Source of the DNA: Planctomycetes bacterium RIFCSPLOWO2_12_FULL_50_35
GTDB lineage: Bacteria > Planctomycetota > Brocadiia > Brocadiales > Bathyanammoxibiaceae
Direction of reading: 5' to 3'
DNA: 21,312 bases
NCBI GenBank assembly: GCA_001828605.1
Contig: MHZB01000050.1
Location: forward strand, 1-21,312
Part shown: positions 3 through 20,179 of the stretch, one piece after another
Position numbering within the stretch: the first letter of the stretch is position 1
Layout: each line of letters starts with the position of its first letter
Notes under the pieces: model-generated
Database searches by the model: none
Told to the model about the DNA's origin: nothing
What the model saw: only the letters and a program-made list of their open reading frames with translations
Program-made: the position numbers and the translations under genes

Positions 3-140
3 AGGTTGCCCCTATTCCCACTATTCACCAAGATAGAAATAACACCCCTGGTAAACCAGGAAAAGGCCCTGCAGGATGCCCGCAGGATGTATCAACTGGT
101 AAAAGACGTCGACACGATGGTCTTCCCCACCAGTCCATAG
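3..140 (+). CDS. Possible 3' end of an upstream CDS (product unknown), truncated by the window edge
   Basis: The frame starting at nt 3 is open for 45 codons (...EITPLVNQEKALQDARRMYQLVKDVDTMVFPTSP) and ends at TAG 138-140. No family is recognised. It is too short to appear in the ORF track. Confidence 0.3.
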   Translation, partial: RLPLFPLFTKIEITPLVNQEKALQDARRMYQLVKDVDTMVFPTSP

Positions 141-618: not shown

Positions 619-1575
619 ATGCTAAGAGAAAATATAGAAAGAATTTTAAGAGAATACCCTTCCGCAAAGAATGAGCCTTTCTCGGGACATGCTTTAGCTC
701 ACTTTTTACGCCACGATTTCCCAAAGGATTTAGAGAGTTTAGTCGATAACCCAAATAGATACAAATTTACTGGCTCGGCCGGTCAAGGGACTTGGGCTAA
801 CTGCCCTTGGGTTGCAGTTTTTGATATTCTTGTTACAGAGTCGGCACAATCCGGTTATTACCCTGTCTATTTATTTCAAGAAAATATGAAAGGAGTGTAC
901 CTTTCTTTAAATCAGGGTGTAACAGAGATAAGAGAGAAATATAAAGATAATCCGAAGCATGTCTTAAAAATACGGGCATCAGATTTTAGAGCGCAAATCG
1001 GACCTAGTCTTGAGGAATTTCAAGATACACCAATAAACCTAGCAATTTCATCAACTTCAGAGCTTGCAGCGTTCTACGAAGTTGGTAATATTTATGCGCA
1101 ATATTACAATTCTGACAATCTACCCTCGGAAGATCAACTCATATCAAATTTCAGAGATATGCTGAGATTATATGAGCTCCTCAGCTATAACGAAAATATT
1201 CCGACTGCATCGTCTGTGAGAGAACAAGACGAACCATATATTTCAAAGGGTACAGAAGACCTTAGGAAGTTACGAGAACACAAAAGGATAGAGAGAAATG
1301 TAAAATTATCGAAGGCAGCAAAAAAAAATCATGGCTACACTTGCCAAGCATGCGGTTTTAATTTTGCTAAATTTTATGGCCTATTGGGTGAAGAATTTAT
1401 CGAAGCACATCATCTGACACCTATATCCGAGTTGAAGGGCCAGCGGGTTACACTTGATCCGGTTCATGATTTTGCAGTTCTTTGCTCTAACTGCCATAGT
1501 ATGATTCACAGATTTGAAAAGCCAGAAGATATAGAAGCCTTTAAAAGGATCTTGCGCCAGCGAAATATCAATTAA
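619..1575 (+). CDS. MrcB_N (DUF3578) domain fused to a C-terminal HNH nuclease; candidate modification-dependent (Type IV) restriction endonuclease
   Basis: The N-terminal region has the 'GSAGQGTWANCPWVAVFDILVTESAQSGYYPVYLFQENMKGVYLSLNQGV' signature typical of the McrB N-terminal DNA-binding domain family. The C-terminus has the HNH/zinc motif 'CQACGFNF...EAHHLTPISE...LCSNCHSMIH'. The gene is markedly AT-richer than its neighbours. Confidence 0.85.
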   Translation: MLRENIERILREYPSAKNEPFSGHALAHFLRHDFPKDLESLVDNPNRYKFTGSAGQGTWANCPWVAVFDILVTESAQSGYYPVYLFQENMKGVYLSLNQGVTEIREKYKDNPKHVLKIRASDFRAQIGPSLEEFQDTPINLAISSTSELAAFYEVGNIYAQYYNSDNLPSEDQLISNFRDMLRLYELLSYNENIPTASSVREQDEPYISKGTEDLRKLREHKRIERNVKLSKAAKKNHGYTCQACGFNFAKFYGLLGEEFIEAHHLTPISELKGQRVTLDPVHDFAVLCSNCHSMIHRFEKPEDIEAFKRILRQRNIN

Positions 1576-1738: not shown

Positions 1739-3184
1739 CTACGCAGGCAGTGAGATGGTCTTTGATGTGCCGGCGTAGCAGTCCTTGTAATAATCGCCGG
1801 AGGCCTGCAGTTTGTGCAGGTTTTCAAGCACCTGCAGGAATACCTGGTCCCAGTCCTGGCTTACCCTGAGGGCAAACATGGAGTTGCGCGGGTCGCCGGT
1901 CTCCTGCATGGACGTCCTGAACCTCTTGCGGATGCTGTCTCCAGCGTATACATGGTCATATACGTACTGCATGCCGTCTACAAAATCGTCCAGGGTCATG
2001 TCAACAAACTTATGAACCACGTTGGCAGTTTCATAGTAGACCCAGTCCTCGGGGAAATTCTTGCGGAAGAGCCTCTTCTCCGAATCAAGCCGGTAGAAAA
2101 GTGGCGTCTTGGGGAATGGACAGTCAAGACCGTAGGTCAGGATGTCCACCTTGCAGTCGTACACAAAATCAACCATTTTCTTGAACGAATCCTTGTCGTC
2201 GCCGTCGGCGCCGAACACCACTGAGGCCCAGACGATAAGACCCGCATCGTGTATCTTCTTTATGCAGTCCTTGTAATTGGTCGCCCCCAGTTTTAGGTTC
2301 ACCCTCTTGCCCATCTTTTTGAGGACCTCCGGGTTGGTGCTCTCAATACCGACCAGGAAGCCGAAGTTGCCTGACTTTCTCATCAGGCTGAGGGCCTCTG
2401 CGTCCTGTGAGATATTCAAGGCTGTAAAGCCAAGCCAATCCTTCTTAAGGTCTCTCTCAATCATCCCCCTGAAGAGGTTCTTCGCCCTTTCGGCCGAGCG
2501 CGCGCCGTGGCCGTAGAAATTGTCCTCGGCGAACATAAGTCCCTTATAAGTCGTGGCCGCCATCTCATCGAGCACGTCCTCGTAGGGCCTCTCCCTGAAC
2601 TTCTGTCCCTGGAAAGTGGGCACGCTGCAGAAATCGCAGCGGTTGGGACAGCCCTTGGTGGTTATTATAGAAGAGAACTTGTAGCCGTACTTCCTTCTCA
2701 TAAGTTCTCTGTCGGGATATACTCTTTTTAGCACTGAGAGGTGCGGGAGGCCGCCGTCATAACGTCTCTGCAGCTTCCCGTTTTCAAAATCCTTTATGAC
2801 CTGCGGCCAGACGGTCTCCGCCTCGCCCGTAATAACCGTGTCTGCGTACTGCAGGGCTTCTTCTGAGGACACAGAGGTGTGTATGCCGCCCATAATTGTG
2901 GTACAGCCGTGTTTCTTCGCCGCCTGGGCAATCTTGTAGGCCCTTGGGGCCTGATAGGTGAGTGCGGTTATTGCTACTATATCCGGGGGGGCAAAGGTTA
3001 TGTTCTCTTCGCTGTCATCAAGCGCCAGCTCCAGGTTCTCGTCAACGACGTCAAACTCCCAATCATCACCCGGTGTGAGGGCAGCAATGTAGGCCAGATT
3101 CAGAGGCATCTGGACTATTACAGATATGCTTTCCTCGCCGTGACGTCCTGGAGGATGAGGGTTTACGAGCATTATCTTCTTCAT
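1739..3184 (-). CDS. B12-binding (class B) radical SAM enzyme
   Basis: CxxxCxxC cluster motif 'GCPNRCDFCSV'. The N-terminal Rossmann-like B12-binding region reads 'IVAITALTYQAPRAYKIAQAAKKHGCTTIMGGIHTS'. I place the start at ATG 3184 (MKKIMLVNPH), preceded by GGGAGA with an 8-nt spacer. The ORF-track start at 3274 would overlap the upstream gene. Confidence 0.9.
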   Translation of the reverse strand: MKKIMLVNPHPPGRHGEESISVIVQMPLNLAYIAALTPGDDWEFDVVDENLELALDDSEENITFAPPDIVAITALTYQAPRAYKIAQAAKKHGCTTIMGGIHTSVSSEEALQYADTVITGEAETVWPQVIKDFENGKLQRRYDGGLPHLSVLKRVYPDRELMRRKYGYKFSSIITTKGCPNRCDFCSVPTFQGQKFRERPYEDVLDEMAATTYKGLMFAEDNFYGHGARSAERAKNLFRGMIERDLKKDWLGFTALNISQDAEALSLMRKSGNFGFLVGIESTNPEVLKKMGKRVNLKLGATNYKDCIKKIHDAGLIVWASVVFGADGDDKDSFKKMVDFVYDCKVDILTYGLDCPFPKTPLFYRLDSEKRLFRKNFPEDWVYYETANVVHKFVDMTLDDFVDGMQYVYDHVYAGDSIRKRFRTSMQETGDPRNSMFALRVSQDWDQVFLQVLENLHKLQASGDYYKDCYAGTSKTISLPA

Positions 3185-3189
3185 AACCT

Positions 3190-4617
3190 TTATCTCCCGT
3201 TCTCTAAAATCATGTTTGCGACCCGCCAGCCCGAAGACACGACGGCACAGACACCGGGTCCCGGGTTGGTCCAATGTCCCGCCATGTAGAGGTTATCTAC
3301 CGGCGTCTTATTACTTAGCCTGCCCGGTCCCGTCTGGTCCAACGTTACGGCCCACCCGTATGCAGCACCCTTTGAATTAAGTGTATACCGCCAAAGGGTC
3401 TTTGGTGTTGCCGCATCCACTACCTCGATGTGTCTTTCAAGGTTCGGCACAAAATCTTCCAGGTAGCGTATTGTACACTTGGTAAGTCTATCTTTCAAGC
3501 CCTTCCAGTCCTTAACCTCATCATATTTTTCCTCTGTGGTGGCCACTACTGTTATCTCCTGCCGGCCCTTTGTGGCAAGTGACGGGTCTACCTTGGTCGG
3601 CGCCGATACGTATTTCCACTGGTTGTTAGGGCTGTGATAAAACCCCCTCTTAAAATTACTTAAATCCACATTCGGGTCCAGACCAAGATAAAGGAGAAAA
3701 TAAGAAGGACTTTCTTTCATCCCCCTGATTCTGTCCATATAAGCCGGGTCCACTTCTTCCTTGATCAGGTCAGAAAAAGTCTGTTTGGCGTCAACGTTTG
3801 AGACAACGTATTCAGCCTTAACGTCTTCACCCCCGTCAAGTCTTACTCCGGCCACCTTGTTATCTCTAAGAAAAATCTCTTTTACCTTGGAAGACAGGAG
3901 CAGGTCACCGCCAGAGTCCCTGAGACTCTTGGCAAAGGCGTTTGCAAAATTTTGTGTTCCTCCCTTTGGATACCAGGCCCCGTCTCTGAGATAATTTACA
4001 AGCATCTGGCACATACCGATACTCGAAACCTCATACGCCGGTGAACCTAGATACCCCCACTGCCCCGCCAGTACCGTCTTAAGCTCCAGGTCGTCGAAGA
4101 AACTGTCGAGCATTACCCCATAGGTCTGTTCCCTGTACTTCTGCAGTGTGGGGCTATTCTCCGATTCGTTTATTATGGCCCTGTACAGCTTTATAAACTC
4201 ACTAAAAAATCTGGATATATTATCCTTTTCTGCCGGGTATCTCCGTTGTAAGGACGACTTATAGCTCTCGATGTCTGCGGGTATGTCTATGGAGAACGAA
4301 GGGAATATGAGGCTGTCCATCGGGTCCAGCCCAAAGAATTCCAGCTCTATCCCCAATTCCTTCAGGCATCTGCCAACTATACTGTACTTACTACAGCCCC
4401 CGATGTGATGTACGGCGGAATCGAAGATATACGCCCCTCGTTTAAACGACGTGCAGTAGCCCCCTGGGATGTTATGCTGCTCTACTACCAGGGTCTTCTT
4501 GCCCCTCTTGGCAAGGAAGGCGCCCGAAACCAGCCCTCCTACGCCCGCTCCAATTACAACAACATCATATTTATCCTGCAACTCACTCTTTTTTATAGAA
4601 AGGCCGTGTCCCGCCAT
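3190..4617 (-). CDS. FAD-dependent oxidoreductase, phytoene desaturase (CrtI)/amine oxidase family
   Basis: N-terminal dinucleotide-binding motif 'DVVVIGAGVGGLVSGAFLAKRGKKTLVVEQHNIPGGYC'. The length and C-terminal 'LYMAGHWTNPGPGV' are typical of the CrtI/CrtISO-like family. Confidence 0.9.
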   Translation of the reverse strand: MAGHGLSIKKSELQDKYDVVVIGAGVGGLVSGAFLAKRGKKTLVVEQHNIPGGYCTSFKRGAYIFDSAVHHIGGCSKYSIVGRCLKELGIELEFFGLDPMDSLIFPSFSIDIPADIESYKSSLQRRYPAEKDNISRFFSEFIKLYRAIINESENSPTLQKYREQTYGVMLDSFFDDLELKTVLAGQWGYLGSPAYEVSSIGMCQMLVNYLRDGAWYPKGGTQNFANAFAKSLRDSGGDLLLSSKVKEIFLRDNKVAGVRLDGGEDVKAEYVVSNVDAKQTFSDLIKEEVDPAYMDRIRGMKESPSYFLLYLGLDPNVDLSNFKRGFYHSPNNQWKYVSAPTKVDPSLATKGRQEITVVATTEEKYDEVKDWKGLKDRLTKCTIRYLEDFVPNLERHIEVVDAATPKTLWRYTLNSKGAAYGWAVTLDQTGPGRLSNKTPVDNLYMAGHWTNPGPGVCAVVSSGWRVANMILENGR

Positions 4618-4619
4618 TT

Positions 4620-5873
4620 CTAGGAGTATTTAGACATTATCAGGGCAGAACAATTGCCCGTATACGAGAATGACTCCACAAGCACATTATCTACCCGTGC
4701 CTGTCTCTTTTTATTCGGCACGTAGTCCAGGTCACAGTCAGGGTCAGCTTCTTTATAGTTGATGGTAGGGGGGATAAACCCCGTATTGATTGACATGACC
4801 GAGGCCGCACACTGCATCGCACCTGACGCATCAAGGCAATCTCCCGTCATGGACTTTATCGCACTTATAGGTATCTTCTTTGCAAGGTCGCCGAGGGCCT
4901 TCTTTATGACGGTGCTCTCCATCCTGTCACCGTTAATACTGGAGTTGGCGTTAGCATATATCAAGGAAACGTCCTTCGGCTTGAGTCCGGCGCCATTGAG
5001 AGCCATGGATATGGCCCTTACCCCTCCCCCCCGGTCTTCACTGCCGCCCAAGTTGGGGTTGAAGCTGGTACCATAACCTTTAACCTCTGCGTATATCTTG
5101 GCGCCCCTTGCCTTGGCATCTTCCATGCATTCAAGAAGGAGAAGCGCTGCGCCCTCACCCATAACTATACCGTTACGCCTTTTGTCGAAAGGCGCACATA
5201 TCTCTACGCCACCGGCGCTATTGCTCCCGGACAGCACCCCCGCTTTGCAGGCAGCCCAGAATATATTCTTGGTAAGCCCATACACACCGCCCGCCATAAC
5301 GACCTTTATCCTGCCAAGCCTAAGAAAGTCAGAGGCACATATTATTGCGTCCACACCGCTTGATTCACCGGTAGAGATGGTAGAGTTGAGTCCCTTTGCC
5401 CGGCAAAATATAGAGGCACGGCTGGCGGGGGCGTTTAAGACCGTATTAGGAAAGTCCATCGGGTTGACGTAGTTAGGCCCCTCACTGAGGGCCTCCATAT
5501 CAAAGGTGCTTATGCTGTCAATGCTGCCAAAGGTGGAGCCGAGAACTATACCGAAGTCATCCTCCTTGTATACCTTATCGAGTTTGGCGTCCTCCATGCA
5601 TATGCTTGAGGCGGCGGTAACCAAGAGAGACGTCCTGTCAAAATGACGTATCCCCTTACTCCCCAAGAACTTGTTAGGGTCAAAATCCGGTATCTCTCCG
5701 GCCTTTTTGGACCTATATTCACTCACGTCAAAAAGGCTTATCGGCTTTATGCCTGAGACACCGTTCTGCAGGTTCTCCCAGAAACTCTCCTTGCCGACGC
5801 CGACAGGGCTTATGATGCCTATGCCTGTAACTACTACCCTTTTTTCCATTAGTCTGCTTATTCCAGAAACCAA
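4620..5873 (-). CDS. Ketosynthase paralog lacking the Cys-His-His triad (KS-beta / chain-length-factor-like)
   Basis: Full-length KAS fold, alignable with the adjacent KS, but 'STGESSG' replaces 'PTACAAG' (Cys->Glu), 'YANANSS' replaces 'SAHGTGT' (His->Asn) and 'SMTGDCLD' replaces 'SMMGHTMG' (His->Asp). The start could instead be ATG 5849 (MEKRVVVTGIG). Confidence 0.85.
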   Translation of the reverse strand: MVSGISRLMEKRVVVTGIGIISPVGVGKESFWENLQNGVSGIKPISLFDVSEYRSKKAGEIPDFDPNKFLGSKGIRHFDRTSLLVTAASSICMEDAKLDKVYKEDDFGIVLGSTFGSIDSISTFDMEALSEGPNYVNPMDFPNTVLNAPASRASIFCRAKGLNSTISTGESSGVDAIICASDFLRLGRIKVVMAGGVYGLTKNIFWAACKAGVLSGSNSAGGVEICAPFDKRRNGIVMGEGAALLLLECMEDAKARGAKIYAEVKGYGTSFNPNLGGSEDRGGGVRAISMALNGAGLKPKDVSLIYANANSSINGDRMESTVIKKALGDLAKKIPISAIKSMTGDCLDASGAMQCAASVMSINTGFIPPTINYKEADPDCDLDYVPNKKRQARVDNVLVESFSYTGNCSALIMSKYS

Positions 5874-5921
5874 AGACAGAAAACCGCCAGATGAAGACTT
5901 ATAACTGCACCTACTGGTGAT

Positions 5922-7151
5922 TTAGTTAAGGAATTTCTTGACTACCAGACAGCTGTTATTACCACCAAAGGCGTACGCAGTGTTAAGGGCGATGTCTACG
6001 CGGTGTTCTCGCGATACGTTCGGCACATAGTCCAGGTCGCATTCGGGGTCTTTTGTCTCGTAGTTTATCGTGGGTGGGACTTTATTGTTTTTAACCGTCA
6101 GCGCACAGGCAATAGTCTCTATGGCACTTGCCGCGCCCATAGTATGACCCATCATAGACTTTATAGAACTTACCATGAGCTTATTAGCATGCCTACCAAA
6201 CACCTTTTTTATAGAAATAGTTTCTGCCTTATCGTTGGCAACGGTGCCGGTGCCGTGGGCACTGATATACTGTACGTCCTCAGGGTTAATCCGAGCATCC
6301 TGAAGGGCCTTTTTAACGCAAGAGATTACGCCGTCTCCCTCGGGATGAGGGATTGTAATGTGATAGCTATCGCAGCTCAGACCGTATCCTATAATCTCCG
6401 CATAAATGTCCACTCCCCTCGCTAAAGCGCTGTCCAGGGACTCCAGCAGCAGTATGCCCGCCCCCTCTCCGATCAACATCCCCTTTCGATTCTTGTCAAA
6501 GGGCCTGCATACGTCCGGCGCCACTGCGGCCAGACGGCTGAAGCCTGTAAAGGCTACCTTTGAAAACGGATCCGAACCGCCTGCAAGCATGAAGTCCACC
6601 CTACCCAGTTTTATAAGGTCGCAGGCGTAACCGATGGCGTAGTTACCTGCAGCACACGCTGTAGGTATAATGGTGTTAGGCCCCTTAAACCCAAACACCT
6701 TGGCTATATTGGCGGGTATATTGTTGCACGGGTGCTGAAGGAAGAGCCGGCTGTCAATCTGGCTCTCCTCGTTTTCATATCGGAGGAGGTCAATTTTTTC
6801 TAGTATCTGTATCTCACCGCCGGTCGTTCCAACCGAGACACCCATTCTCTCTGGGTCTATAGCATTCAATTTAAGTCTCGAATCGTCCAGTGCCAGCTTG
6901 GCAGCCGCTATAGCAAACTGAGAACCCCTTCCGAAACTCTCAGTCGAACCATTATCTATATAGTCGTGAAAGTCAAAGTCTTTCACCTCACATCCCTTGT
7001 GAACCTTATGTTGGGACGTGTCAAAACAAGTAACGTCATCTACGCCAGATTTGCCCGCAAGTATAGCCTCCCAAAAGGCTTCCTTACCTGAACCAACAGG
7101 CGTTATGGCACCTACACCCGTAATAACTATACGTTTATTATACTTATTCAT
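5922..7151 (-). CDS. Beta-ketoacyl-ACP synthase II-like (FabF family), catalytically intact
   Basis: Active-site Cys in '[14 protein letters not shown]'. His residues in 'ISAHGTGT' and '[12 protein letters not shown]'. N-terminal '[14 protein letters not shown]'. Confidence 0.92.
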
Positions 7152-7163
7152 ACCTCCGCAACC

Positions 7164-7613
7164 TCAACCGAGAGACGTCTTATCAGCCGTAGCAAAAGTG
7201 AATGAAGCCTTCGCTACCGTATCCTCTCCAACTCTTGCAATGCCTCGCACCATGGCCGCATTAGAGACAACCTTCTCTACGTCTATCTCCAGAAACAATT
7301 GGTCCCCTGGGAAAACTGGTTTCACAAAACTTGCTTTTACTCCGGCCAGTAAAAAGACTGCGCCCGGATTGTTGTCCTGTTTGAAGCTTTTCTTGAAGAG
7401 TATTATTGCGGCCTGCGCCAATGCCTCTAGGGTAAGGGCCCCCGGCATTATTGCATATTCTGGAAAGTGCCCTGCGAAGAAAGGTTCATTCCCGGAAACA
7501 TTCTTGAGGCAAACTACCCTTTTCCCTTCCTCTAATTCAACTACTTTATCTATAAACAGGAAGGGGTATCTTTGGGGGACGAGCTTCTTTACCTCCTCGA
7601 AATTCATTATCAT
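7164..7613 (-). CDS. fabZ: 3-hydroxyacyl-ACP dehydratase, FabZ family
   Basis: 'RYPFLFIDKVVEL...NEPFFAGHFPEYAIMPGALTLEALAQ' contains the canonical FabZ His (GHFP) and Glu (LEALAQ). Confidence 0.9.
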   Translation of the reverse strand: MIMNFEEVKKLVPQRYPFLFIDKVVELEEGKRVVCLKNVSGNEPFFAGHFPEYAIMPGALTLEALAQAAIILFKKSFKQDNNPGAVFLLAGVKASFVKPVFPGDQLFLEIDVEKVVSNAAMVRGIARVGEDTVAKASFTFATADKTSLG

Positions 7614-7640
7614 AGGCCCCTTTTGTCAAGCCTTTTGGGC

Positions 7641-7916
7641 CTAGGCTTCCTGCAGCCTTCCACTCTCAGCCAGCACCGATTTGGTCATGTCAATGGTAGC
7701 CGTCAAAGAGGTGATATCTACCAGCTTCTCCTCTGGTATCTGAATCTTAAATTTCTTCTCTATAAGAGCTAATATCTCTAGGGCTAAGAGAGAGTCTATC
7801 TCTAATTCCTTAAAGAAATTGGCATCTCTCTTCTTCCAAATTTCGTCCCTATCTAGTTCCGTAACTTCCGCAACAATGGACGTTACCTCTTTTTCGATAT
7901 CTTCTACGTTCAACAC
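7641..7916 (-). CDS. Acyl carrier protein
   Basis: Phosphopantetheine attachment motif 'LEIDSLLALEI'. 91 aa. GTG start at 7916 preceded by AAGGAGAG. Confidence 0.9.
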   Translation of the reverse strand: MLNVEDIEKEVTSIVAEVTELDRDEIWKKRDANFFKELEIDSLLALEILALIEKKFKIQIPEEKLVDITSLTATIDMTKSVLAESGRLQEA

Positions 7917-7977: not shown

Positions 7978-8223
7978 CTACGTGAATTGTCTAACATATA
8001 CCACAGCCTCAACTATATTGTCAATAGCAATCTTAGGCCCTAAGTCCATAGTTCTGCAAGGCGCAGTTAAAATCTTAGACAAGGCGATAAAACCGTCAAG
8101 TGTTGGGGCGTATAACGCCAAAACTCTTACCGTAAAAGCGCTGTCCATACCGCAGTTACTGACAGTACCCTCTGCAAGACTGCGCATTTCCTCGGCCGAT
8201 GTTGGAGGCCTCATTTTTCCCAT
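7978..8223 (-). CDS. Hypothetical 81-aa protein, uncertain gene
   Basis: The minus-strand translation looks more protein-like than the overlapping plus-strand ORF 7982-8317 (S/T/L/I-rich, typical of antisense reading). No convincing RBS. There is a weak by-eye resemblance to the N-terminal half of AhpD/carboxymuconolactone-decarboxylase-like proteins ('RVLALYAPTLDGFIALSKIL'), which I do not trust. Confidence 0.35.
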   Translation of the reverse strand: MGKMRPPTSAEEMRSLAEGTVSNCGMDSAFTVRVLALYAPTLDGFIALSKILTAPCRTMDLGPKIAIDNIVEAVVYVRQFT

Positions 8224-8327: not shown

Positions 8328-8355
8328 TTGACAAAATCTTTTCGTTCTGTAGAAT
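8328..8355 (+). promoter_or_regulatory. Candidate sigma70 promoter for hemL
   Basis: Perfect TTGACA (8328-8333), 16-nt spacer, TAGAAT (8350-8355). Confidence 0.4.
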
Positions 8356-8386
8356 GGCTTTTTCTTTTACTTGCGGAGATTCTACT

Positions 8387-9694
8387 TTGCCCCCAGTGAC
8401 AAAGAACTTCACCATCAGTAAATCTAACGAGGTCTTCAAAGAGGCATTAAAACATATCCCCGGTGGGGTGAACAGCCCGGTAAGGGCCTTCGGCCCCGTC
8501 GGTGGCCATCCCATATTCATACAGTCCGGCTCGGGATGCCGTATAAGAGACATAGACGGCAACGAGTATATAGACTACGTGTGTTCCTGGGGACCCCTAA
8601 TCCTTGGTCATAACGAACCATACGTAGCAAGACAAATTAAGGCCGCTGTAGATAAGGGTACAAGCTTTGGGGCGCCCACAGAGTTAGAGGTACAACTGGC
8701 TAAACTCGTAAAAGAGTTTATGCCGTCCATTGATAAGGTAAGGATGGTAAACTCCGGTACGGAAGCCACTATGAGCGCCATCCGGCTTGCCAGGGGGTTT
8801 ACCAGGCGTGATTTGGTAATAAAGTTTGAAGGCTGTTATCATGGTCACGTAGACGGCCTCTTGATAAAGGCAGGGTCCGGGGCAACAACACTGGGTGTAC
8901 CGACAAGTCCGGGCGTCCCCCAGGGTTATATTGACAGCACAATTATCCTCCCCTTTAACGACAGTAATGCTGTAGAAAATTTTTGTAGGGAACGGGGTAA
9001 AGAGGTTGCCTGCATAATCCTGGAACCGGTGGCAGGGAACATGGGCGTAGTACCACCCAAACCCGGTTACCTGGAAAAGCTGCGGGAGATAACAAGGCAT
9101 TACAGTATCGTCCTCATCTTTGACGAGGTGATGACGGGTTTCCGCGTATCGCCTGGCGGCGCACAGGAACTGTACGGTATAAAACCCGACCTTACTACAT
9201 TAGGAAAGGTAATTGGCGGCGGCCTGCCGGTAGGCGCCTACGGCGGGAGGGCTGAGATAATGGACCGCGTAGCCCCGGTTGGCCCAGTATATCAAGCTGG
9301 AACGCTCTCCGGGAATCCTGTGGCCATGAGCGCGGGCATAGCTACCCTTGAGAGACTGAGGGATAAAAACATATATAAGCAGCTTGAAAAAAAATCCCAA
9401 TGTCTTGCAGAAGGATTCGAGAAATCGGCGCGTGACGCCGGGGTAAAAACATACCACACAAGGGTAGGTTCCATGCTCTGCACCTTCTTTACAAAAGACA
9501 CCGTTCACGATTATAAGACGGCAACGTCTTCTGACACAAAGCGTTACGCTCGCTACTTTAACGGCATGTTGGAAAGGGGCGTATATCTGGCGCCTTCCCA
9601 GTTTGAGGCAGCCTTCGTCTCCGCCGCCCATAATGACTCAGACATAGAGGCCACTATCGAGGCGAGCTGTCAGGCAATGAAAGATTTACCGTAG
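8387..9694 (+). CDS. hemL: Glutamate-1-semialdehyde 2,1-aminomutase
   Basis: '[12 protein letters not shown]' signature, and class-III aminotransferase PLP lysine context '[21 protein letters not shown]'. The maximal ORF starts at ATG 8354, but that ATG lies inside the candidate -10 box. TTG 8387 has GGAGA (8375-8379) 7 nt upstream and gives a normal-length N-terminus. Confidence 0.93.
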
Positions 9695-9704
9695 GTCTAA
9701 AATA

Positions 9705-10337
9705 ATGGAAGCCCATGCAAGCAGAGACAATCTACGAGAAGCCTCTCAAAGACTTAACGCAATGTGCCTCAAGGCAGAGAGGATGCTGCACACTACTATA
9801 GATGGGTTTATACGTCACAGTGAGAAGAGGATAAAACAGGCTGAAGAGATTGGAGACGATATATTCAAGGATGAAAAGGAACTAACAGGTTTCCTGGTTG
9901 GAATTCCCGGCAAAACGGAAGAGGAGAAGGAGCAACTAAAGGAACTTATTGCAGCGGTAAGCCATCTTCATAGGGTCGCAGAGGCATTGAAGAACATGCT
10001 GCCTATCGTAAGGAATAAGATAAAGGACGAGATTCTTTTCAGCAACAAGGCCGTAGAGGAATTAAAATCCCTTTTTGAAAATACCCGTAAGATTCTCAAA
10101 AGTGCGGGAGATGCATTTCTAACCGGAAATCCCGTCCTGGTAAAGTATGTGTTGGAGGAAGGAGTACGCCTGAATGAGGTTGGTGATAATTATGCCATAG
10201 AACATGAAGACAGACTTATTTCAGGGGTATGCGTACCCAAGGCATCTCCATTATACATAAATATACTAGATTGTTTATCCAGAGTTAACTGGCATACAAT
10301 GAGGGCTGTGGAGAGATTTTCCTCCAAAAAGGTATGA
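9705..10337 (+). CDS. PhoU-like domain protein (function uncertain)
   Basis: Helical, charged protein. The C-terminal 'EHEDRLISGVCVPKASPLYINILDCLSRVNWHTMRAVE' resembles the PhoU-like repeat pattern H..RL..G......S.....IL..L.R...H. Assignment by eye only. Confidence 0.55.
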   Translation: MEAHASRDNLREASQRLNAMCLKAERMLHTTIDGFIRHSEKRIKQAEEIGDDIFKDEKELTGFLVGIPGKTEEEKEQLKELIAAVSHLHRVAEALKNMLPIVRNKIKDEILFSNKAVEELKSLFENTRKILKSAGDAFLTGNPVLVKYVLEEGVRLNEVGDNYAIEHEDRLISGVCVPKASPLYINILDCLSRVNWHTMRAVERFSSKKV

Positions 10338-10342
10338 AGGAC

Positions 10343-10366
10343 GGGCAGGCAATAACAAACCTGCCC
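10343..10366 (+). terminator. Hairpin downstream of the PhoU-like gene (weak terminator or attenuator candidate)
   Basis: GGGCAGG (10343-10349) pairs with CCTGCCC (10360-10366) around a 10-nt loop. No U-tract follows. Confidence 0.25.
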
Positions 10367-10391
10367 TCCCCATTAGTGTTGTGAGCAGAGC

Positions 10392-10622
10392 TTGAACAGC
10401 AAAGGGCCGCCGGACACATATATCGCATACGGAAGGGCCATAAGCCTTGGCTTCTTCATGGTGGGGTCAATTGTAGGCTGTTATTTTGTAGGAAGCTATC
10501 TGGACTCTCGCTTTGGCACGACGCCAAAACTGATGATCACGTTTGTTATGCTGGGCATAGCCGCAGGTTTTGTGGAGTTCTACAGGGTGTTGAAGAAACT
10601 CTCGGCAAATAAAAGGCCTTAG
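10392..10622 (+). CDS. atpZ: AtpZ/ATPase_gene1-family small membrane protein
   Basis: 76 aa with two predicted TM helices ('ISLGFFMVGSIVGCYFVGSYL', 'LMITFVMLGIAAGFVEFY'). Located immediately upstream of atpI-atpB. TTG start. Confidence 0.75.
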   Translation: MNSKGPPDTYIAYGRAISLGFFMVGSIVGCYFVGSYLDSRFGTTPKLMITFVMLGIAAGFVEFYRVLKKLSANKRP

Positions 10623-10627
10623 GGCAT

Positions 10628-11080
10628 TTGGTGATGAGAGAACTGAACAAGGCTAATCTATTCGAACTAGACCCGGGTTTCCCCGAAAGGGTATTCGACA
10701 CGTCTCTATTTACGGGAATGCTGCTCATAGTGTGCTCCACGGCGCTGAATTCCATAAACTTTACCTTAAGCCTGGCGGCCGGTGTAGCCATCAGCCTCGC
10801 CTTCTGCCGGGTGTCGTGGTGGAGCATACGCCGCTTTATGCAGCCCGGATTGAAAGGGCAAAAACCCGCCTTTCTCTTACTCGGCATCATTAAATACGTC
10901 GCTATGGGTGTTGCCCTTTTTCTCCTGTTCAAACACTTTGACGTACACATAGTGGCGCTTTTCGTCGGCCTTAGCACCGTACAGGCCGTAATTACGTTAA
11001 AACTCCTAAGCTTATTGCTGGTTGGTTTCCTTAACAAATCGGTCAGGGTCCCAAGCGTACATTCACGGGACGTCTTCTAA
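10628..11080 (+). CDS. atpI: ATP synthase protein I
   Basis: 150-aa polytopic membrane protein directly preceding atpB. Alternative starts are GTG 10631 and ATG 10634. Confidence 0.75.
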   Translation: MVMRELNKANLFELDPGFPERVFDTSLFTGMLLIVCSTALNSINFTLSLAAGVAISLAFCRVSWWSIRRFMQPGLKGQKPAFLLLGIIKYVAMGVALFLLFKHFDVHIVALFVGLSTVQAVITLKLLSLLLVGFLNKSVRVPSVHSRDVF

Positions 11081-11106
11081 TCAGAAAGGAACGATAAGAG
11101 ACTGCA

Positions 11107-11859
11107 ATGACTGAAACATCACAGTCACACGGTGTCGTCGAACTGCCTTGTTTCTTGGAACTTTTCGTAGGCAAGGACTTTACACTGTTCGGTCTCACGG
11201 AAGAGCAGTTGGTGCCGGTGGTAATATCCGGGATAATAATAATATTTCTGTCGTTCCTGTCCATTTCGGTAACAAGCCGACTCGAGAAAATACCCGGTAC
11301 CATGCAGGCACTGCTTGAACTGGTGGTGGAGGGGCTGGACGACTTTATTGAATCGCAGATGGGCCACGTAGGCCGCGCCTTTTTACCGTTCCTCGGGAGC
11401 CTGTTTATTTACATATTATTTATGAACCTGATAGGGCAGATACCGCTTTTCCATTCCCCTACGGCTAACTACAATACTACGCTAGCCCTTACGCTTATAG
11501 TATTTCTGGTCACCCAGTACCAGGGAATAAAGACACGTGGACCCGTAGGTTATATTAGACATTTTGTCGGAGACCCCCTCTGGATGGCGCCTATATTCTT
11601 CCCACTGCACATCATACAGGAGTTCTTGGCCCGTCCGCTCTCCCTGTCCGTCCGTCTATTCGGGAACCTGATGGGGGAGCATACCGTGCTTGCGATATTT
11701 ATAGGTTTCTCCCCCCTCTTGTTGGGCTTTATCCCCATTCCCATACAACTTCCCATAGTCCTCTTGGACATGCTTTGTGCCACCCTTCAGGCAATCATCT
11801 TTTTCCTGCTGGCGTGCTTTTACATCTCAAGTGCAATGGGTGTACATGATGAACACTAA
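11107..11859 (+). CDS. atpB: F-type ATP synthase Fo subunit a
   Basis: Conserved 'LSLSVRLFGNLMGEHTVL' with the essential Arg, plus operon position. Confidence 0.95.
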   Translation: MTETSQSHGVVELPCFLELFVGKDFTLFGLTEEQLVPVVISGIIIIFLSFLSISVTSRLEKIPGTMQALLELVVEGLDDFIESQMGHVGRAFLPFLGSLFIYILFMNLIGQIPLFHSPTANYNTTLALTLIVFLVTQYQGIKTRGPVGYIRHFVGDPLWMAPIFFPLHIIQEFLARPLSLSVRLFGNLMGEHTVLAIFIGFSPLLLGFIPIPIQLPIVLLDMLCATLQAIIFFLLACFYISSAMGVHDEH

Positions 11860-11877
11860 GGAAACGGAGGTATATCA

Positions 11878-12150
11878 ATGATATATTTTGCAGCATTAGT
11901 CTTGGGTGTTGCTTTTGTGGCCATAGCCTCTTCCGGATGCGGCATAGGTATGGGCCTCTGTGTTGGAGGGGCGCTAAACGCAATGGCAAGGCAACCTGAC
12001 CTGTACGGTAAATTCCAGATAGTCATGTTCATTGGTCTTGCCTTCATCGAATCGCTGACCATATACGCCCTTGTCATATCGTTTATACTCCTGGGCAGAC
12101 TGCCCACTACGGAAGAAGTCATGGAGATAATCAAGCACACAGCCAAATAG
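11878..12150 (+). CDS. atpE: F-type ATP synthase Fo subunit c
   Basis: Hairpin proteolipid with 'AMARQPD' loop and carboxylate in 'AFIESLTIYALV'. Confidence 0.95.
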   Translation: MIYFAALVLGVAFVAIASSGCGIGMGLCVGGALNAMARQPDLYGKFQIVMFIGLAFIESLTIYALVISFILLGRLPTTEEVMEIIKHTAK

Positions 12151-12172
12151 CTTTCAGTGGAGGTCCTAAGAC

Positions 12173-12676
12173 TTGGAATTCTTAAAAGCCCTCGGGGTTG
12201 ATCTTAGACTGCTTATAATACAGGCAGCCGGTTTTCTGATACTCCTCTACATACTGAGGAAATACCTCTTTGGCAAAATACTGGCGGCCCTAAAGGCCAG
12301 ACGTGAAGAGGTTCAGGAGACCTACAGGAAGTCGGAACAGTACCGCGCAGAAGCGGCAAATCTAAAGACGAATTACGAGAGAAAGGTAACTGAGGCCGAA
12401 GCGGAGGCGGAAAAGAAGCTCACTGCCGCCGTAAAGGAGGCCAAGGTACTGGGCACGGAGATAGTTGAAAAGAGCCGTCAAGAGGCCGAGACAATAAAAC
12501 GAAAGGCGCATGAAACGGTGGAGCTGGAGAGAAAAAAGGCGGCGGCAGAGATTCGGAACCAGGTGGTAGACCTTTCCATACTCGCCACCCAAAAACTTAT
12601 AGAGACGTCCATCAGCAAGGCCAAGGCGGAAGAATTGGTAGACGAGTTCATCAAAGGCGTGGAGGGTATTAAGTGA
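12173..12676 (+). CDS. atpF: F-type ATP synthase Fo subunit b
   Basis: Single N-terminal TM helix followed by a long charged Ala/Glu/Lys-rich helix. TTG start 8 nt after GGAGG. Operon position. Confidence 0.9.
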   Translation: MEFLKALGVDLRLLIIQAAGFLILLYILRKYLFGKILAALKARREEVQETYRKSEQYRAEAANLKTNYERKVTEAEAEAEKKLTAAVKEAKVLGTEIVEKSRQEAETIKRKAHETVELERKKAAAEIRNQVVDLSILATQKLIETSISKAKAEELVDEFIKGVEGIK

Positions 12677-13221
12677 TAGATAAGACGCTAGCCATAGGGT
12701 ATCTCCAGGCGCTTTTCGAGCTGGCCAGATCAAAAGACCAATTTCAACAAGTCACCGGCGATTTGGAGGTCGTGGCTGAGCTTTTTAGACAAAATGAGAA
12801 ACTGAAAAAAATCTTTCTCCATCCCTCAGTCACACGGGACGAAAAGACAAGACTCGTCAAAGGCGTCTTTGCCCCACACGTAAGCCCCCTGGTCAGGAAC
12901 TTCTTTCTGCTTCTTGTGGAAAAAAGACGGGAGAATATATTAGACGACCTCCTGGAGCAGTACCACGCGGTGGCCGACTTAGTCGGCGGAAGGCACAGAG
13001 CCTTCATCAAGACGGCCGCACCTCTGACAGAAGACAGCCTTACCAGACTCAAGAAGGCCCTGGAAGACATGACTAAGAAAACAGTCGAGATGAACGTCCA
13101 GGTAACCCCTGAAATACTTGGCGGAGTAATCGTTAAAATCGGCAATAGGGTGCTTGACGGCAGCGTCGCCTCACGCCTTAAAAACCTGAGAAAGAAGTTG
13201 ATCGAGGTGGGTATCGGCTGA
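12673..13221 (+). CDS. atpH: F-type ATP synthase F1 subunit delta (OSCP)
   Basis: 'PEILGGVIVKIGNRVLDGSVASRLKNL' C-terminal OSCP signature. The GTG start overlaps the atpF stop (GTGA). Confidence 0.9.
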   Translation: MIDKTLAIGYLQALFELARSKDQFQQVTGDLEVVAELFRQNEKLKKIFLHPSVTRDEKTRLVKGVFAPHVSPLVRNFFLLLVEKRRENILDDLLEQYHAVADLVGGRHRAFIKTAAPLTEDSLTRLKKALEDMTKKTVEMNVQVTPEILGGVIVKIGNRVLDGSVASRLKNLRKKLIEVGIG

Positions 13222-13290
13222 CCTATGCGGTTAACACTCGTTCTTCTCAGAGACATCGGGATCTAAAAATAAGAATAGGAGTGCTTTGCA

Positions 13291-14805
13291 ATGGCGTTAA
13301 AACCTGATGAGGTTGCATCCATACTCAAGAAAGAGATAGAGGGATACGAAGAGAAACTCCGGATGGAGACCGTAGGAACGGTACTCCAGGTAGGCGACGG
13401 CGTAGCGAGGATTTACGGTCTGGATGACTGTATGGCAAGCGAACTGCTGGAATTTGCAAACGGGTTGTACGGAATTGCACTCAACCTGGAGGAGGATAAC
13501 GTAGGAGCCATCTTGCTGGGCTCAGACGAGAACGTGAAGGAAGGAGATACGGTAAAAACAACCGGTAAGATTGTGCAGGTACCTGTCGGTGAAGCACTCC
13601 TGGGAAGGGCCGTAAACGCCCTGGGACAACCGGTGGACGGTAAAGGTCCAATTGCCGCTGACAAATTCATGCCGATCGAGGGACGCGCGCCAAGCGTGGT
13701 AGAGAGAATGCCGGTAAAAGAACCGCTGCAGACCGGCATTAAGGCCGTAGACGCAATGATCCCCATAGGCAGGGGGCAAAGAGAACTAATAATAGGCGAC
13801 CGACAGACCGGCAAGACGGCCATCATGATAGATACCATTATCAATCAGAAAGACACGGACGTCCAATGTATCTACGTAGCCATCGGCCAAAAGATGTCCA
13901 CCATCCTGGACGTAATAAAGACACTTGAGAAATACGGCGCCATGGAATACACCACTATCGTGGTGGCCTCCGCCAGCGATCCGGCGCCGCTTCAATATAT
14001 CGCACCATTTGCAGGGTGCGCCATGGGGGAATACTTTAGAGACAACAAGAAGCACGCCCTGGTCATGTACGATGACCTCTATAAACACGCCCTTGCCTAC
14101 CGTCAGGTATCACTCCTGCTCAGGCGTCCGCCTGGAAGAGAGGCGTTCCCTGGGGATGTATTCAACATACACTCCCGTCTGCTGGAGCGGGCGGCCAAAC
14201 TAAACCAGGAACTCGGCGGCGGTTCTCTAACTGCCCTACCCGTGGTAGAAACCCAGGCGGGTGACTACTCTGCGTATATCCCAACAAACGTAATATCCAT
14301 TACAGATGGACAGATATACCTTGAGAGTGACCTGTTCTACTCGGGCGTCAGACCGGCCATTCACGTAGGGCTTTCGGTGTCAAGGGTGGGCGGAAATGCG
14401 CAAACGCCGGCGATGAAAAAGGTTGCCGGCATGCTCAGACTCACAATGGCTCAGTACCGTGAGCTTGCAGCATTTGCACAGTTCGGCTCCGAGCTCGACA
14501 AGGCCACGCAGGAACAACTCGAAAGGGGAAAACGCCTGGTGGAGATACTGAAACAGCCCCAGTACAGACCAATACCTTTTGAGAAACAGGTTATGATCAT
14601 TTTCGCCGGCGTAAACGGTTACCTGGGCAACGTACCCGTAGAAAGGGTGAGGGCGTTTGAAGAAAAGTTCCATAAGTTCATGGCCGAGAAATATCCTGCC
14701 GTGGGGGAAGAAATTAAAGAGAAGAAGAAACTCACTGACGACATTATCCACAGGTTGACCAAGGCCTTGGAAGAATTCAAGGGCACATTTGCAGAGGGTA
14801 AATAG
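13291..14805 (+). CDS. atpA: F-type ATP synthase F1 subunit alpha
   Basis: Walker A 'GDRQTGKTA', plus '[28 protein letters not shown]'. Confidence 0.98.
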
Positions 14806-14808
14806 AAA

Positions 14809-15681
14809 GTGCAAGGCACGCGTGAAATAAAACAGCGCATACGGGGCATCACAAACATCCAGCAGATAACCCGCGCAATGGAAATGGTGGCCGCGAGCCG
14901 GCTGCGAAAGGCCGAGGCGCGCATCGTTGCCGCACGACCATACAACGAGAAAATGACGGCCCTTCTGAACTACCTTGCAGCCACCACCGTCGGCAAAACC
15001 CACCCTCTGCTTAAGCCTCGAGAGCTCAAGGTGCTAAAGGTAGTGCTGATAACGGCGGATAAGGGCCTGTGCGGTGCGCACAACACCAACATCATACAAC
15101 GCACCTTAAAGTTTATAAGACAGAATCAAGACAAAGACGTCAGACTCATACTTATCGGCAAGAAGGGCCAGAACTATTTCCGCAGAAGACGCTACAACAT
15201 AGAAAAAACCGTCCCCGATGACGTGGAGAGGATCGGTGAAGGGTTAATAACGGAACTCGCCAACCAGTTCATTACGGACTACGAGACCGGCACATGCGAT
15301 CAAGTTCAGATATTTTTCACCAAGTTTATTACGATAATGCGCGGCCTGCCGACCTCCATGAAACTGCTCCCTGTGGAAACGGTAGCCTCAGGGGAGACTC
15401 AAAAAATTGCTTCTACTACAGACTACATATTCGAACCGTCGGCTGAGGACATATTCTCCAAACTCTTCCCCAAATACGTAGAGTCATCCATTCGCTGTGC
15501 CATATTTGAGTCCTTGGCATCAGAGTTTGCGGCGAGAAGGGTCGCAATGATCTCCGCCTCTGAGAATGCGGAAGAGATAATCGGGGAGCTTACACGCTCT
15601 TATAACAGGGCCAGGCAAGAGGCCATCACCAAGGAGCTCCTCGAGATAGTTTCCGGTGCGGAAGCGCTTGCACAGAAATAG
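14809..15681 (+). CDS. atpG: F-type ATP synthase F1 subunit gamma
   Basis: N-terminal 'IKQRIRGITNIQQITRAMEMVAASRLRKA' and C-terminal 'YNRARQEAITKELLEIVSGAEAL'. GTG start. Confidence 0.95.
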   Translation: MQGTREIKQRIRGITNIQQITRAMEMVAASRLRKAEARIVAARPYNEKMTALLNYLAATTVGKTHPLLKPRELKVLKVVLITADKGLCGAHNTNIIQRTLKFIRQNQDKDVRLILIGKKGQNYFRRRRYNIEKTVPDDVERIGEGLITELANQFITDYETGTCDQVQIFFTKFITIMRGLPTSMKLLPVETVASGETQKIASTTDYIFEPSAEDIFSKLFPKYVESSIRCAIFESLASEFAARRVAMISASENAEEIIGELTRSYNRARQEAITKELLEIVSGAEALAQK

Positions 15682-15700
15682 AAATAATTGTTTCAGGTAG

Positions 15701-17442
<1,742 letters not shown>

Positions 17443-17459
17443 TAACAGCCTTAAGCCTT

Positions 17460-18158
17460 TTACGTTGAACCACTCCCCTTCCGATGTGCCTCCCACTTCT
17501 CCTCAGCCTCCGGCACCCTCATATAAAGCGGTTGAAGCCGATATGGGTCAATAATTTCTCCCCTCTCAAATGCTGCCCTGCCAAGACGGGCTACCGCACT
17601 GGCCCTCGCCATGCCCATCTCACCGCCCCCAAAAGTCACTCCATCTACGGCAAATACCTCTCTATACTTAGCTGCACCGTCCCCAAAGATTAGGAGTGGG
17701 CGAGGTAACAACTCCAACAGCTTACGAGGATAGATAACCATAAGCCCGGACGACCGCCGCCATAATGCCCCAGAACGCTTATAGATACGTGCATATACCT
17801 GTTCTCTCCTTGCATCCAGCACCGGGCAGACAGTGGTCTCGTTTGTGGGGGCATTTTCCGCTAATACGTCAAGGGTGGAAACGGCTACCAACGGTTTCCC
17901 AAGTGTATAGGCCATGGCCTTTGCACAGGCGATACCCACCCTCAGCCCTGTGTATGAGCCGGGGCCGCTGCTTACCGCTATAAGACCTATCTCGTCCGGC
18001 TCGACCCCTAACGACTTGAACATATCCTCCAGAGAGGATACCAACGCCTTCCCGTGGCGCATACCTCTATCGAAGCTCCTCTCCTCAAGTGTGCTAGAGT
18101 CTTCACAGAGGGCTACGCTACCTACCAATCCAGATGTTTCTATGCCGAGGACCTTCAT
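17460..18158 (-). CDS. tsaB: tRNA t6A37 threonylcarbamoyltransferase complex dimerization subunit TsaB (YeaZ)
   Basis: 'MKVLGIETSG...VALCED' and 'IAVSSGPGSYTGLRVGIACAKAMAYTLGKPLVAVSTLD'. Confidence 0.9.
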   Translation of the reverse strand: MKVLGIETSGLVGSVALCEDSSTLEERSFDRGMRHGKALVSSLEDMFKSLGVEPDEIGLIAVSSGPGSYTGLRVGIACAKAMAYTLGKPLVAVSTLDVLAENAPTNETTVCPVLDARREQVYARIYKRSGALWRRSSGLMVIYPRKLLELLPRPLLIFGDGAAKYREVFAVDGVTFGGGEMGMARASAVARLGRAAFERGEIIDPYRLQPLYMRVPEAEEKWEAHRKGSGST

Positions 18159-18319
18159 ATTTGTCTGCAGGATTAACTCAGGTAATGGTCAAGACGTGGC
18201 CTTGACCTACCCTCGTCAGGCTAACTTTTCCCTGGTGATTTTATTACCCTTTTTATATGATATTAAACCTGCGCGGACAAGGCTAATCTTTGGCCAAAAT
18301 GCAGTGAGAAACAAGATTA

Positions 18320-19813: not shown

Positions 19814-19836
19814 TCCTCATGTTAATCTAGCTCTAG

Positions 19837-19868
19837 GGGTGCCACAGGGCTTAAGCCCTGTGGCACCC
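19837..19868. repeat. 32-bp perfect palindrome GGGTGCCACAGGGCTT|AAGCCCTGTGGCACCC (REP-like; possible terminator of the aldehyde dehydrogenase gene)
   Basis: Perfect self-complementarity read directly from the sequence. It starts 24 nt after stop 19813. Its core CAGGGCT-NN-AGCCCTG recurs at 1604-1620 and 1647-1662. Confidence 0.7.
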
Positions 19869-19914
19869 GGTATAAAATAGCTTTTGTGATGCATCTCTTT
19901 TTAACTGCGGGTTA

Positions 19915-19970
19915 TGTAGTTGCCCCATTTATGGGGCTGTAATTTAAGCCTGATAAATCAGGCAACTACA
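19915..19970. repeat. GTAG...CTAC-bounded structured element (predicted three-way junction)
   Basis: TGTAGTT (19915-19921) pairs with AACTACA (19964-19970). Two internal hairpins: GCCCCA-TTTA-TGGGGC (19922-19937) and GCCTGAT-AA-ATCAGGC (19948-19963). Confidence 0.6.
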
Positions 19971-19981
19971 AAAAGTATTTT

Positions 19982-20037: not shown

Positions 20038-20058
20038 TTAAAAATTCAGTTTCTTTTC

Positions 20059-20158: not shown

Positions 20159-20179
20159 AATATATCCGTGAGGTATAAT

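Follow-up and report, generated by a model that had tools for sequence, protein, structure and literature searches.

Between positions 1739 and 7916, the minus strand of the 21,312-nucleotide stretch analysed here (contig MHZB01000050.1 of assembly GCA_001828605.1, hereafter the window) carries six packed genes in the same direction, encoding an acyl carrier protein (ACP), a FabZ-type dehydratase, a ketosynthase (KS) with intact catalytic residues (KS-alpha), a second KS with a dead catalytic triad (KS-beta), a CrtI-like flavoenzyme and a radical S-adenosylmethionine enzyme (rSAM) with a B12-binding domain. This operon is almost certainly the ortholog of 'Cluster I' of anammox bacteria, because it is collinear with kuste3603–3608 of Kuenenia stuttgartiensis, where the rSAM gene also closes the operon, and because its proteins are 55–84% identical to their Kuenenia counterparts (ACP 84%, FabZ 59%, KS-alpha 71%, KS-beta 60%, flavoenzyme 55% and rSAM 72%). 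It is a known, actively studied cluster and not a discovery; what we add here is a linked partner operon, homologs outside the anammox bacteria, and a glutamate variant of the chain-length-factor-like (CLF) ketosynthase.

Ladderane biosynthesis has been an open problem for 20 years, with experiments centred on Cluster I of Kuenenia, Brocadia and Scalindua, and the window contributes one ortholog from a deep-branching groundwater lineage. A first-pass annotation, made from the sequence without database searches, had read the operon as a candidate ladderane-type anammox cluster with unsolved chemistry, a reading that is upheld by the collinearity with kuste3603–3608 and by the treatment of the host metagenome-assembled genome (MAG) as an anammox genome. 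What that annotation said of the literature, namely that such clusters had been proposed in anammox bacteria and that heterologous expression had failed, agrees with the paper in which the clusters were first proposed (Rattray 2009, PMC2649909) and with the later expression study (Javidpour 2016, PMC4790861).

Gene order and protein families of the operon

The six genes, given with their Cluster I names (amxACP, amxFabZ, amxFabF2, amxFabFmut, PDH and the cobalamin-type rSAM), are as follows.

7916..7641, minus strand: ACP (amxACP ortholog), 91 aa, GTG start; Pfam PP-binding match
7613..7164, minus strand: FabZ (amxFabZ ortholog), 149 aa; FabA/FabZ models of Pfam and NCBIfam
7151..5922, minus strand: KS-alpha (amxFabF2 ortholog), 409 aa; Pfam and NCBIfam matches, catalytic residues intact
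5873..4620, minus strand: KS-beta (amxFabFmut ortholog), 417 aa from TTG 5873; Pfam and NCBIfam matches, dead triad
4617..3190, minus strand: CrtI-like flavin adenine dinucleotide enzyme ('PDH', kuste3607 ortholog), 475 aa; Pfam Amino_oxidase and NAD_binding_8
3184..1739, minus strand: B12-domain rSAM (kuste3608 ortholog), 481 aa; Pfam B12-binding and Radical_SAM

Each of the six domain calls made in the first-pass annotation is backed by Pfam and NCBIfam, and the intergenic distances it gave are exact, with 27 nt between ACP and FabZ, 12 nt between FabZ and KS-alpha, 2 nt between KS-beta and the flavoenzyme gene (TAGAAATG) and 5 nt between the latter and the rSAM gene. The ribosome-binding site that it had placed within the 3′ end of the flavoenzyme gene is there as well, as GGGAGA ahead of the rSAM ATG. 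The start of KS-beta is ambiguous, either TTG 5873 (417 aa) or ATG 5849 (409 aa), and the KS-alpha/KS-beta gap is accordingly 48 or 72 nt. The rSAM reading frame is open to 3274; initiation at ATG 3184 gives the 481-aa protein, which is 100% identical to database entries. This arrangement is not a product of chance, since the same gene order recurs in Kuenenia, in other anammox MAGs and on contigs from non-anammox bacteria.

Solved anammox orthologs exist in the PDB for four of the six operon proteins, and the ACP, FabZ and FabFmut proteins of the window are each nearer to these anammox-specific structures than to canonical paralogs of the type II synthesis of fatty acids (FAS II). The ACP, whose phosphopantetheine serine sits in an IDSL motif, matches the anammox ACP 7auf/7ax5 best, at 139 bits where canonical ACPs reach about 30, and FabZ scores 211 bits with the amxFabZ structures 7qv0/8ayi against 114 bits with E. 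coli FabZ. FabZ retains catalytic His49 and Glu63, and has Val97 and Val116 in place of basic ACP-docking residues. The published amxFabZ signature has Ile instead of the canonical Gly at position 69, Ser or Thr at 96 and Val or Ile at 115. Ile70 of the window protein, which aligns with amxFabZ Ile69, and Val116 fit this signature, while at position 96 the window has Val, which is non-basic yet differs from the Ser/Thr typical of Cluster I. In biochemical work, amxFabZ prefers chains up to C8 and accepts only amxACP, not a canonical ACP (Dietl 2023).

Within the ketosynthase pair, KS-alpha keeps Cys166, His299, Lys331 and His336, and KS-beta has Glu170, Asn308, Lys340 and Asp345 at the corresponding positions, so that only the Lys is kept. 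In the pair that the first-pass annotation described as KS/CLF-like, the second KS has Glu170/Asn308/Asp345 instead of the Cys/His/His triad. KS-beta scores 546 bits with anammox FabFmut (PDB 9s5h_C) against 268 bits with canonical FabF. Orthologous amxFabF2 and amxFabFmut form a KS/CLF-like heterodimer that decarboxylates malonyl-amxACP and favours C6–C8 chains (May 2026 preprint, Granatino 2026); the window holds the sequence features of such a pair, and the heterodimer itself is seen in the orthologs only (PDB 9s5h).

We then compared the four catalytic positions among the best 120 matches of a CLF protein search, all of them from anammox bacteria and at least 61% identical. The most frequent pattern is the T-C-K-E of the Scalindua type (54 clusters), with V-C-K-E in 36 and the V-N-K-E of Kuenenia in 6, and I-N-K-E occurs once. 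E-N-K-D or E-N-K-E is found in 25 clusters, made up of the window (E-N-K-D) and relatives at 66% identity or more. Since the preprint names only Val or Thr at the CLF Cys position (Granatino 2026) and the Glu pattern recurs in 25 related clusters, Glu at this position is, as far as these sequences tell, a variant of deep-branching groundwater clades.

PDB searches with the flavoenzyme and the rSAM returned no solved ortholog. The flavoenzyme finds its best PDB match in CrtI (4dgk, 97 bits); against the NCBIfam model crtI_fam (TIGR02734) it reaches 168 bits, under the cutoff of 238, and only the broad Pfam Amino_oxidase model accepts it. For the rSAM, the Pfam models B12-binding (52 bits against a cutoff of 32) and Radical_SAM (59 bits) both match, and the cluster motif CPNRCDFC contains C179, C183 and C186 in a CX3CX2C spacing that is invariant in the homolog alignment. 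Its best PDB sequence match is TsrM (6wte, 40 bits), and it lies under every curated NCBIfam cutoff, the best score being 88 bits against a cutoff of 600; its Kuenenia ortholog likewise falls short of every such cutoff. We considered TIGR04072 (rSAM_ladder_B12, 'lipid biosynthesis B12-binding/radical SAM protein') as a family for this enzyme, which it resembles in having a B12 domain and an association with FAS-like genes. The scores are 75 bits for the window protein, 87 for kuste3608 and 85 for the rSAM of the neighbouring operon described below, all far under the cutoff of 360, so TIGR04072 represents a different rSAM family.

An AF2 model of the rSAM, built from 19 homologs (pLDDT 84), has as its nearest solved folds AprD4, MgmA, TsrM, OxsB and CysS, all at probability 1.0 and at most 18% identity. 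The modelled fold clearly places the enzyme in class B, the cobalamin-domain radical SAM enzymes (TsrM, MgmA/Mmp10, CysS, OxsB, AprD4, BchE, HpnJ/HpnR, PhpK), which share an N-terminal Rossmann-type B12-binding domain and a CX3CX2C barrel; the fold search confirms this class and cannot tell methylase from cyclase or dehydratase chemistry. Unlike the known members, the enzyme of the window presumably acts on an acyl-ACP.

The host is a groundwater anammox bacterium of the Candidatus Avalokitesvara rifleensis population, an assignment based on literature and naming and not on the window, in which no hzs gene is present. Many scaffolds from Rifle metagenomes, as well as contig MHYX01000055.1 of the Rifle aquifer MAG GCA_001828565.1, carry the identical flavoenzyme sequence, and this MAG is among the anammox genomes of Okabe et al. 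2023. Proteins identical to those of the window are labelled 'Planctomycetes bacterium GWA2_50_13' and 'Candidatus Avalokitesvara rifleensis', the genus of which has been proposed for aquifer MAGs with core anammox genes. The operon agrees with Cluster I of Kuenenia in its six genes, their order, the short junctions, the intact and dead KS, the FabZ tunnel Ile and the non-basic docking positions, and differs from it in the residues of the dead KS and in FabZ position 96, as given above, as well as in its surroundings.

The partner operon and carriers outside the anammox bacteria

A second lipid operon, of the kuste2802–2805 type, lies past the left edge of the window (positions 13045–20992 of the comparison locus L094) and converges on Cluster I. 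It encodes a holo-ACP synthase, a B12-domain rSAM of 491 aa that is 48% identical to the rSAM of the window, an intact KS, a dead KS with Phe/Asn/Lys/Glu at the catalytic positions, a 668-aa iron-sulfur flavoreductase of the FadH/old yellow enzyme (OYE) type, a FabG that clears its equivalog cutoff, and a muconolactone isomerase (MIase)-like protein. Only the end of this operon reaches into the window:

3-140, plus strand: last 45 codons of the MIase-like gene; the translation matches a 114-aa MIase-family protein of L094

The acpS, rSAM, fabF and dead KS genes match Kuenenia kuste2802–2805, whose dead KS likewise has Phe (Phe163) at the Cys position, and in a neighbour-joining (NJ) tree the neighbouring rSAM falls together with the 90% cluster to which Kuenenia CAJ73554 belongs. 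Compared with kuste2802–2805, the neighbouring operon, most of which falls outside the window, additionally has the FadH/OYE-type, FabG and MIase-like genes; it is adjacent to Cluster I and convergent with it here, in contrast to Kuenenia, where the locus tags are distant. The first-pass annotation had stated that ketoreductase, enoyl reductase, acyltransferase and thioesterase genes are missing. This is correct inside 1739–7916 and does not hold for the locus, where FabG and the FadH/OYE-type reductase stand just past the left edge.

The six-gene core is also present in genomes and contigs of higher GC content than the anammox loci compared (39–52% GC):

L091, Acidobacteria MAGs 13_1_40CM_2_60_7 and GCA_036790625.1, 60% GC: ACP-FabZ-KS-KS-PDH-rSAM, stop and start codons overlapping, followed by FabG and FabH
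L092, Planctomycetota MAG, 57% GC: six-gene core, followed by another rSAM, a KS and a short-chain dehydrogenase/reductase (SDR)
L096, metagenomic contig, 66% GC: core, second rSAM, MIase, second KS/CLF, ferredoxin, enoyl-CoA hydratase (ECH) and SDR, all on one strand
L098, metagenomic contig, 70% GC: fused arrangement similar to L096

These cores are 46–52% (ACP), 40–48% (FabZ), 52–57% (KS), 41–47% (PDH) and 55–60% (rSAM) identical to the window. In the two homologs examined for this feature, L091 and L092, the second KS is dead too (A/F/K/D and L/C/A/D at the four positions), and the non-anammox homologs share the bulky FabZ tunnel residue, the non-basic docking positions and the two-residue insertion of the amxACP type. 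Earlier antiSMASH-based papers had reported 'ladderane-like' clusters in other phyla under a loose rule; in contrast to such calls, the homology described here is gene for gene and includes the 'amx' signatures.

The rSAM family is small: among 5.8 billion proteins it makes up about 170–220 clusters at the 90% identity level, and those that are named include no cultured organism outside the anammox bacteria. The L098-type rSAMs form the nearest outgroup of the anammox Cluster I rSAMs in 118 of 200 bootstrap replicates of an NJ tree, with the deeper order not resolved; this support is modest, and we make no claim about the direction of transfer. A GTDB census by rSAM alignment, in which the patterns cover the generic CX3CX2C region and which is not an estimate of distribution, listed at least four relevant loci (L011–L014) among its matches, the others being unrelated rSAMs at 27–38% identity. 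Distant B12-domain rSAMs (38% identity or less) mostly have no FAS neighbours, save for Geobacter-type clusters.

In L096, the gene sets of Cluster I and of the partner operon are fused into one co-directional cluster, and the two operons near the window together look like a split version of this larger cluster, which is found unsplit in non-anammox bacteria. We consider it rather unlikely that Cluster I and the kuste2802–2805-type operon each represent half of a single pathway, ancient and horizontally mobile, that is also found intact in non-anammox Acidobacteria and Planctomycetota, in high-GC bacteria and possibly in Myxococcota.

The rSAM paralogs are arranged differently among these loci. 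Tandem paralogous B12-domain rSAM genes directly follow the flavoenzyme gene in L092 (10001–12913) and L096 (10001–12998), two rSAM genes precede a KS gene on a Myxococcota fragment (L093, 1–2640), and in anammox genomes the rSAM paralogs are split between separate operons. L098 has an extra 442-aa radical SAM protein without a B12 domain between the dead KS and the flavoenzyme (5110–6438), and, on the same strand after its B12-domain rSAM, genes for a holo-ACP synthase, ferredoxin, ECH, SDR and an acyltransferase. L097 (10001–16113, 52% GC) carries only rSAM-KS-KS-ECH-SDR-MIase, a layout like that of kuste2802–2805; the rSAM of L097 shares 58% identity with that of Cluster I, and the L097 SDR and MIase share 61–63% with those of the source organism of the window. 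Because L097 combines this layout with a Cluster I-like rSAM, orthology between the two rSAM lineages is not clean.

Proposed pathway and competing explanations

We think it probable that the Cluster I pathway serves ladderane synthesis along the following lines. As is known from the orthologs, the KS/CLF heterodimer would prime by decarboxylation of malonyl-ACP and handle short chains, in line with published enzymology favouring C6–C8 substrates (Dietl 2023, 2026 preprint), and the module may use its private ACP to build up an enoyl or polyenoyl chain of short length. The more specific proposal of the first-pass annotation, a polyunsaturated acyl-ACP that would then be cyclised, has to be set against this published leaning towards short chains. 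The FabG of the convergent operon could supply ketoreduction in trans, as the gene content suggests. The CrtI-like flavoenzyme might then desaturate or isomerise an enoyl or dienoyl thioester, and conjugated dienoyl intermediates are hinted at by the FadH-type reductase of the partner operon. The two rSAMs would use radical chemistry to form C–C bonds or to alkylate, perhaps step by step during chain growth, and the intermediate may be handed to the second KS/CLF, the rSAM and the FadH-type reductase encoded next door. The presumed end product in anammox bacteria is the ladderane acyl chain.

Jawsamycin biosynthesis offers a conceptual likeness to such a scheme, in that an rSAM acts on enoyl thioester intermediates of a growing chain; we claim no homology. 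Jaw5 belongs to the HemN-like rSAMs and is not known to carry a B12 domain, and Jaw4 is a type I polyketide synthase (PKS). A 2026 review (PMC13459092) takes Jaw4/Jaw5, an iterative PKS and a radical SAM cyclopropanase, as a model for stepwise ring formation, and its third model for ladderanes is stepwise ring formation during chain growth.

Several points weigh against a role in ladderane synthesis. The papers on the cluster (Rattray 2009, Javidpour 2016, Dietl 2023, 2026 preprint) all state that experiments have yet to link any of its proteins to ladderanes, and when kuste3603–3608 were expressed in E. coli, six of six proteins were detected and no new fatty acids appeared, nor could kuste3607 substitute for CrtI (Javidpour 2016, PMC4790861). 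The host, moreover, belongs to an uncultured lineage. Calling the rSAM 'B12-dependent' is an assumption, since the nearest solved fold to our model, AprD4, has the same N-terminal domain and is not known to use cobalamin. Lastly, Cluster I has been called exclusive or unique to ladderane producers (Dietl 2023; 2026 preprint), a claim that is contradicted by the six-gene core with its amx hallmarks in L091, L092, L096 and L098; judged by synteny and signature residues, the cluster is not specific to known ladderane producers. The first-pass annotation had itself held that the same synteny in organisms with ordinary lipids would tell against its proposal: the synteny does occur outside the anammox bacteria, which goes part of the way towards that objection, in carriers that may or may not have ordinary lipids.

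These same observations lend themselves to a different explanation, in which the product of the Cluster I family is not a ladderane and is common to anammox and non-anammox bacteria, for example a lipid or acyl-ACP precursor of a short polyenoyl, a branched or some otherwise modified kind, and ring formation depends on other genes. The ring chemistry would then be encoded elsewhere, for instance in a cluster of the kuste3335–3352 type, which has additional rSAMs and SAM methyltransferases, or lie in anammox-specific changes that are invisible in synteny. Such a shared product is consistent with the full core, including dead KS, FabZ tunnel residue and ACP insertion, in the four non-anammox carriers, with the empty outcome in E. 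coli, and with the syntenic clusters of Desulfotalea, a maker of polyunsaturated hydrocarbons that has no ladderanes (Rattray 2009, PMC2649909). The carriers outside the anammox bacteria are, however, uncultured and could make related strained lipids, and Cluster I is kept in every anammox lineage sampled and is highly expressed according to the literature. We regard a shared non-ladderane product as unlikely, though it deserves to be taken seriously.

A secondary-metabolite pathway of the highly reducing type II PKS kind (aryl-polyene or ishigamide-like), with no role in membrane lipids, appears improbable. The resemblance lies in the architecture: in actinorhodin, ishigamide (Iga11/Iga12) and cispentacin (AmcF/AmcG) biosynthesis an active KS also stands beside an inactive homolog, with a stand-alone ACP and dehydratase, and the orthologous anammox pair is a heterodimer that decarboxylates malonyl-ACP. 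The FabZ product moreover has precomputed ApeP-like and ApeI-like Pfam matches, there is weak NCBIfam similarity to cispentacin AmcB/E/F, and antiSMASH-type 'ladderane' calls are widespread in non-anammox taxa. The cispentacin model matches, however, all fall far under their cutoffs, and KS-beta is nearer to FabF (268 bits) than to the type II PKS ketosynthases of PDB 1tqy (194/153 bits). The CLFs of aromatic PKSs typically have Gln at the catalytic Cys position, where those of Cluster I have Glu, Val or Thr. Cluster I also includes a CrtI-like flavoenzyme and a B12-domain rSAM, both absent from those systems, and no gene for an aryl starter, an ammonia-lyase, glycosyl or acyl transfer, or export is present in the operon or its neighbour. 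The cluster is also universal in anammox bacteria, whose genomes are small and streamlined, and the short-chain preference speaks against long polyene pigments. Less credible still, to the point of being nearly negligible, is a redundant set of housekeeping FAS II paralogs with ordinary straight-chain products. The best family matches are indeed FabF- and FabZ-type models, but the triad of the second KS is dead, amxFabZ refuses canonical ACP, the operon is shared with the flavoenzyme and the rSAM, and the canonical FAS of Kuenenia is encoded elsewhere (kustd1386–1389).

The adjacency of the two operons here and their fusion elsewhere show a gene set that belongs together, comprising FabG, a dienoyl-type reductase, a phosphopantetheinyl transferase, the second KS/CLF and the second rSAM, all of which were missing from the six-gene E. 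coli construct; kuste2802–2805 had been tried only as separate operons (Javidpour 2016, PMC4790861). The failure of exclusivity weakens Cluster I as a genomic proxy for ladderanes, and the non-anammox clusters provide alternative, possibly more tractable gene sets for reconstitution. Should the non-anammox carriers produce ladderane-like lipids or other acyl lipids cyclised by radical chemistry, anammox bacteria would not be the only source of ladderanes, and the compact single-strand clusters of L096 and L098 would be much better templates for reconstituting the chemistry.

Flanking genes and the intergenic hairpin

The remaining features near the operon are the following.

619-1575, plus strand: MrcB_N/HNH protein, 318 aa, type IV restriction-like (Pfam)
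1576-1738, no strand: convergent intergenic hairpin with two inverted CAGGGCT(T/A)(T/A)AGCCCT copies
8354-17442, plus strand, divergent from the operon: class-III aminotransferase (HemL-like), PhoU-domain protein and a full F-type ATP synthase operon with AtpZ/AtpI-like genes

The MrcB_N/HNH gene and the hairpin lie between the two lipid operons. Because the gene is missing from the Kuenenia locus, it looks like an insertion wedged between them. The hairpin region folds as RNA at −54.7 kcal/mol (z = −4.95 against shuffled sequences), and is probably a bidirectional terminator that closes the operon, or a repetitive extragenic palindromic (REP)-like element. Promoter and terminator consensus scans gave matches no more frequent than expected by chance, and an Rfam scan, for instance for a cobalamin riboswitch, gave no matches.

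Upstream of the ACP gene, an open reading frame at 7978–8223 on the minus strand (78–81 aa) was considered as a seventh gene of the operon and rejected: it has no Pfam match, and no tblastn match even in a relative of 81% identity (L012). On this comparison it is probably not a gene; several public assemblies annotate it as one. On the far side of this frame, the adjacency of Cluster I to the ATP synthase side is kept on the contigs examined from the source population (L001–L004, L094 and L095) and is not found in Kuenenia. The rest of the window (17460–21007) is taken up by ordinary housekeeping genes. One, on the minus strand, encodes a TsaD-family (TsaB-like) protein, and the others an aldehyde dehydrogenase and a pyrroline-5-carboxylate reductase.

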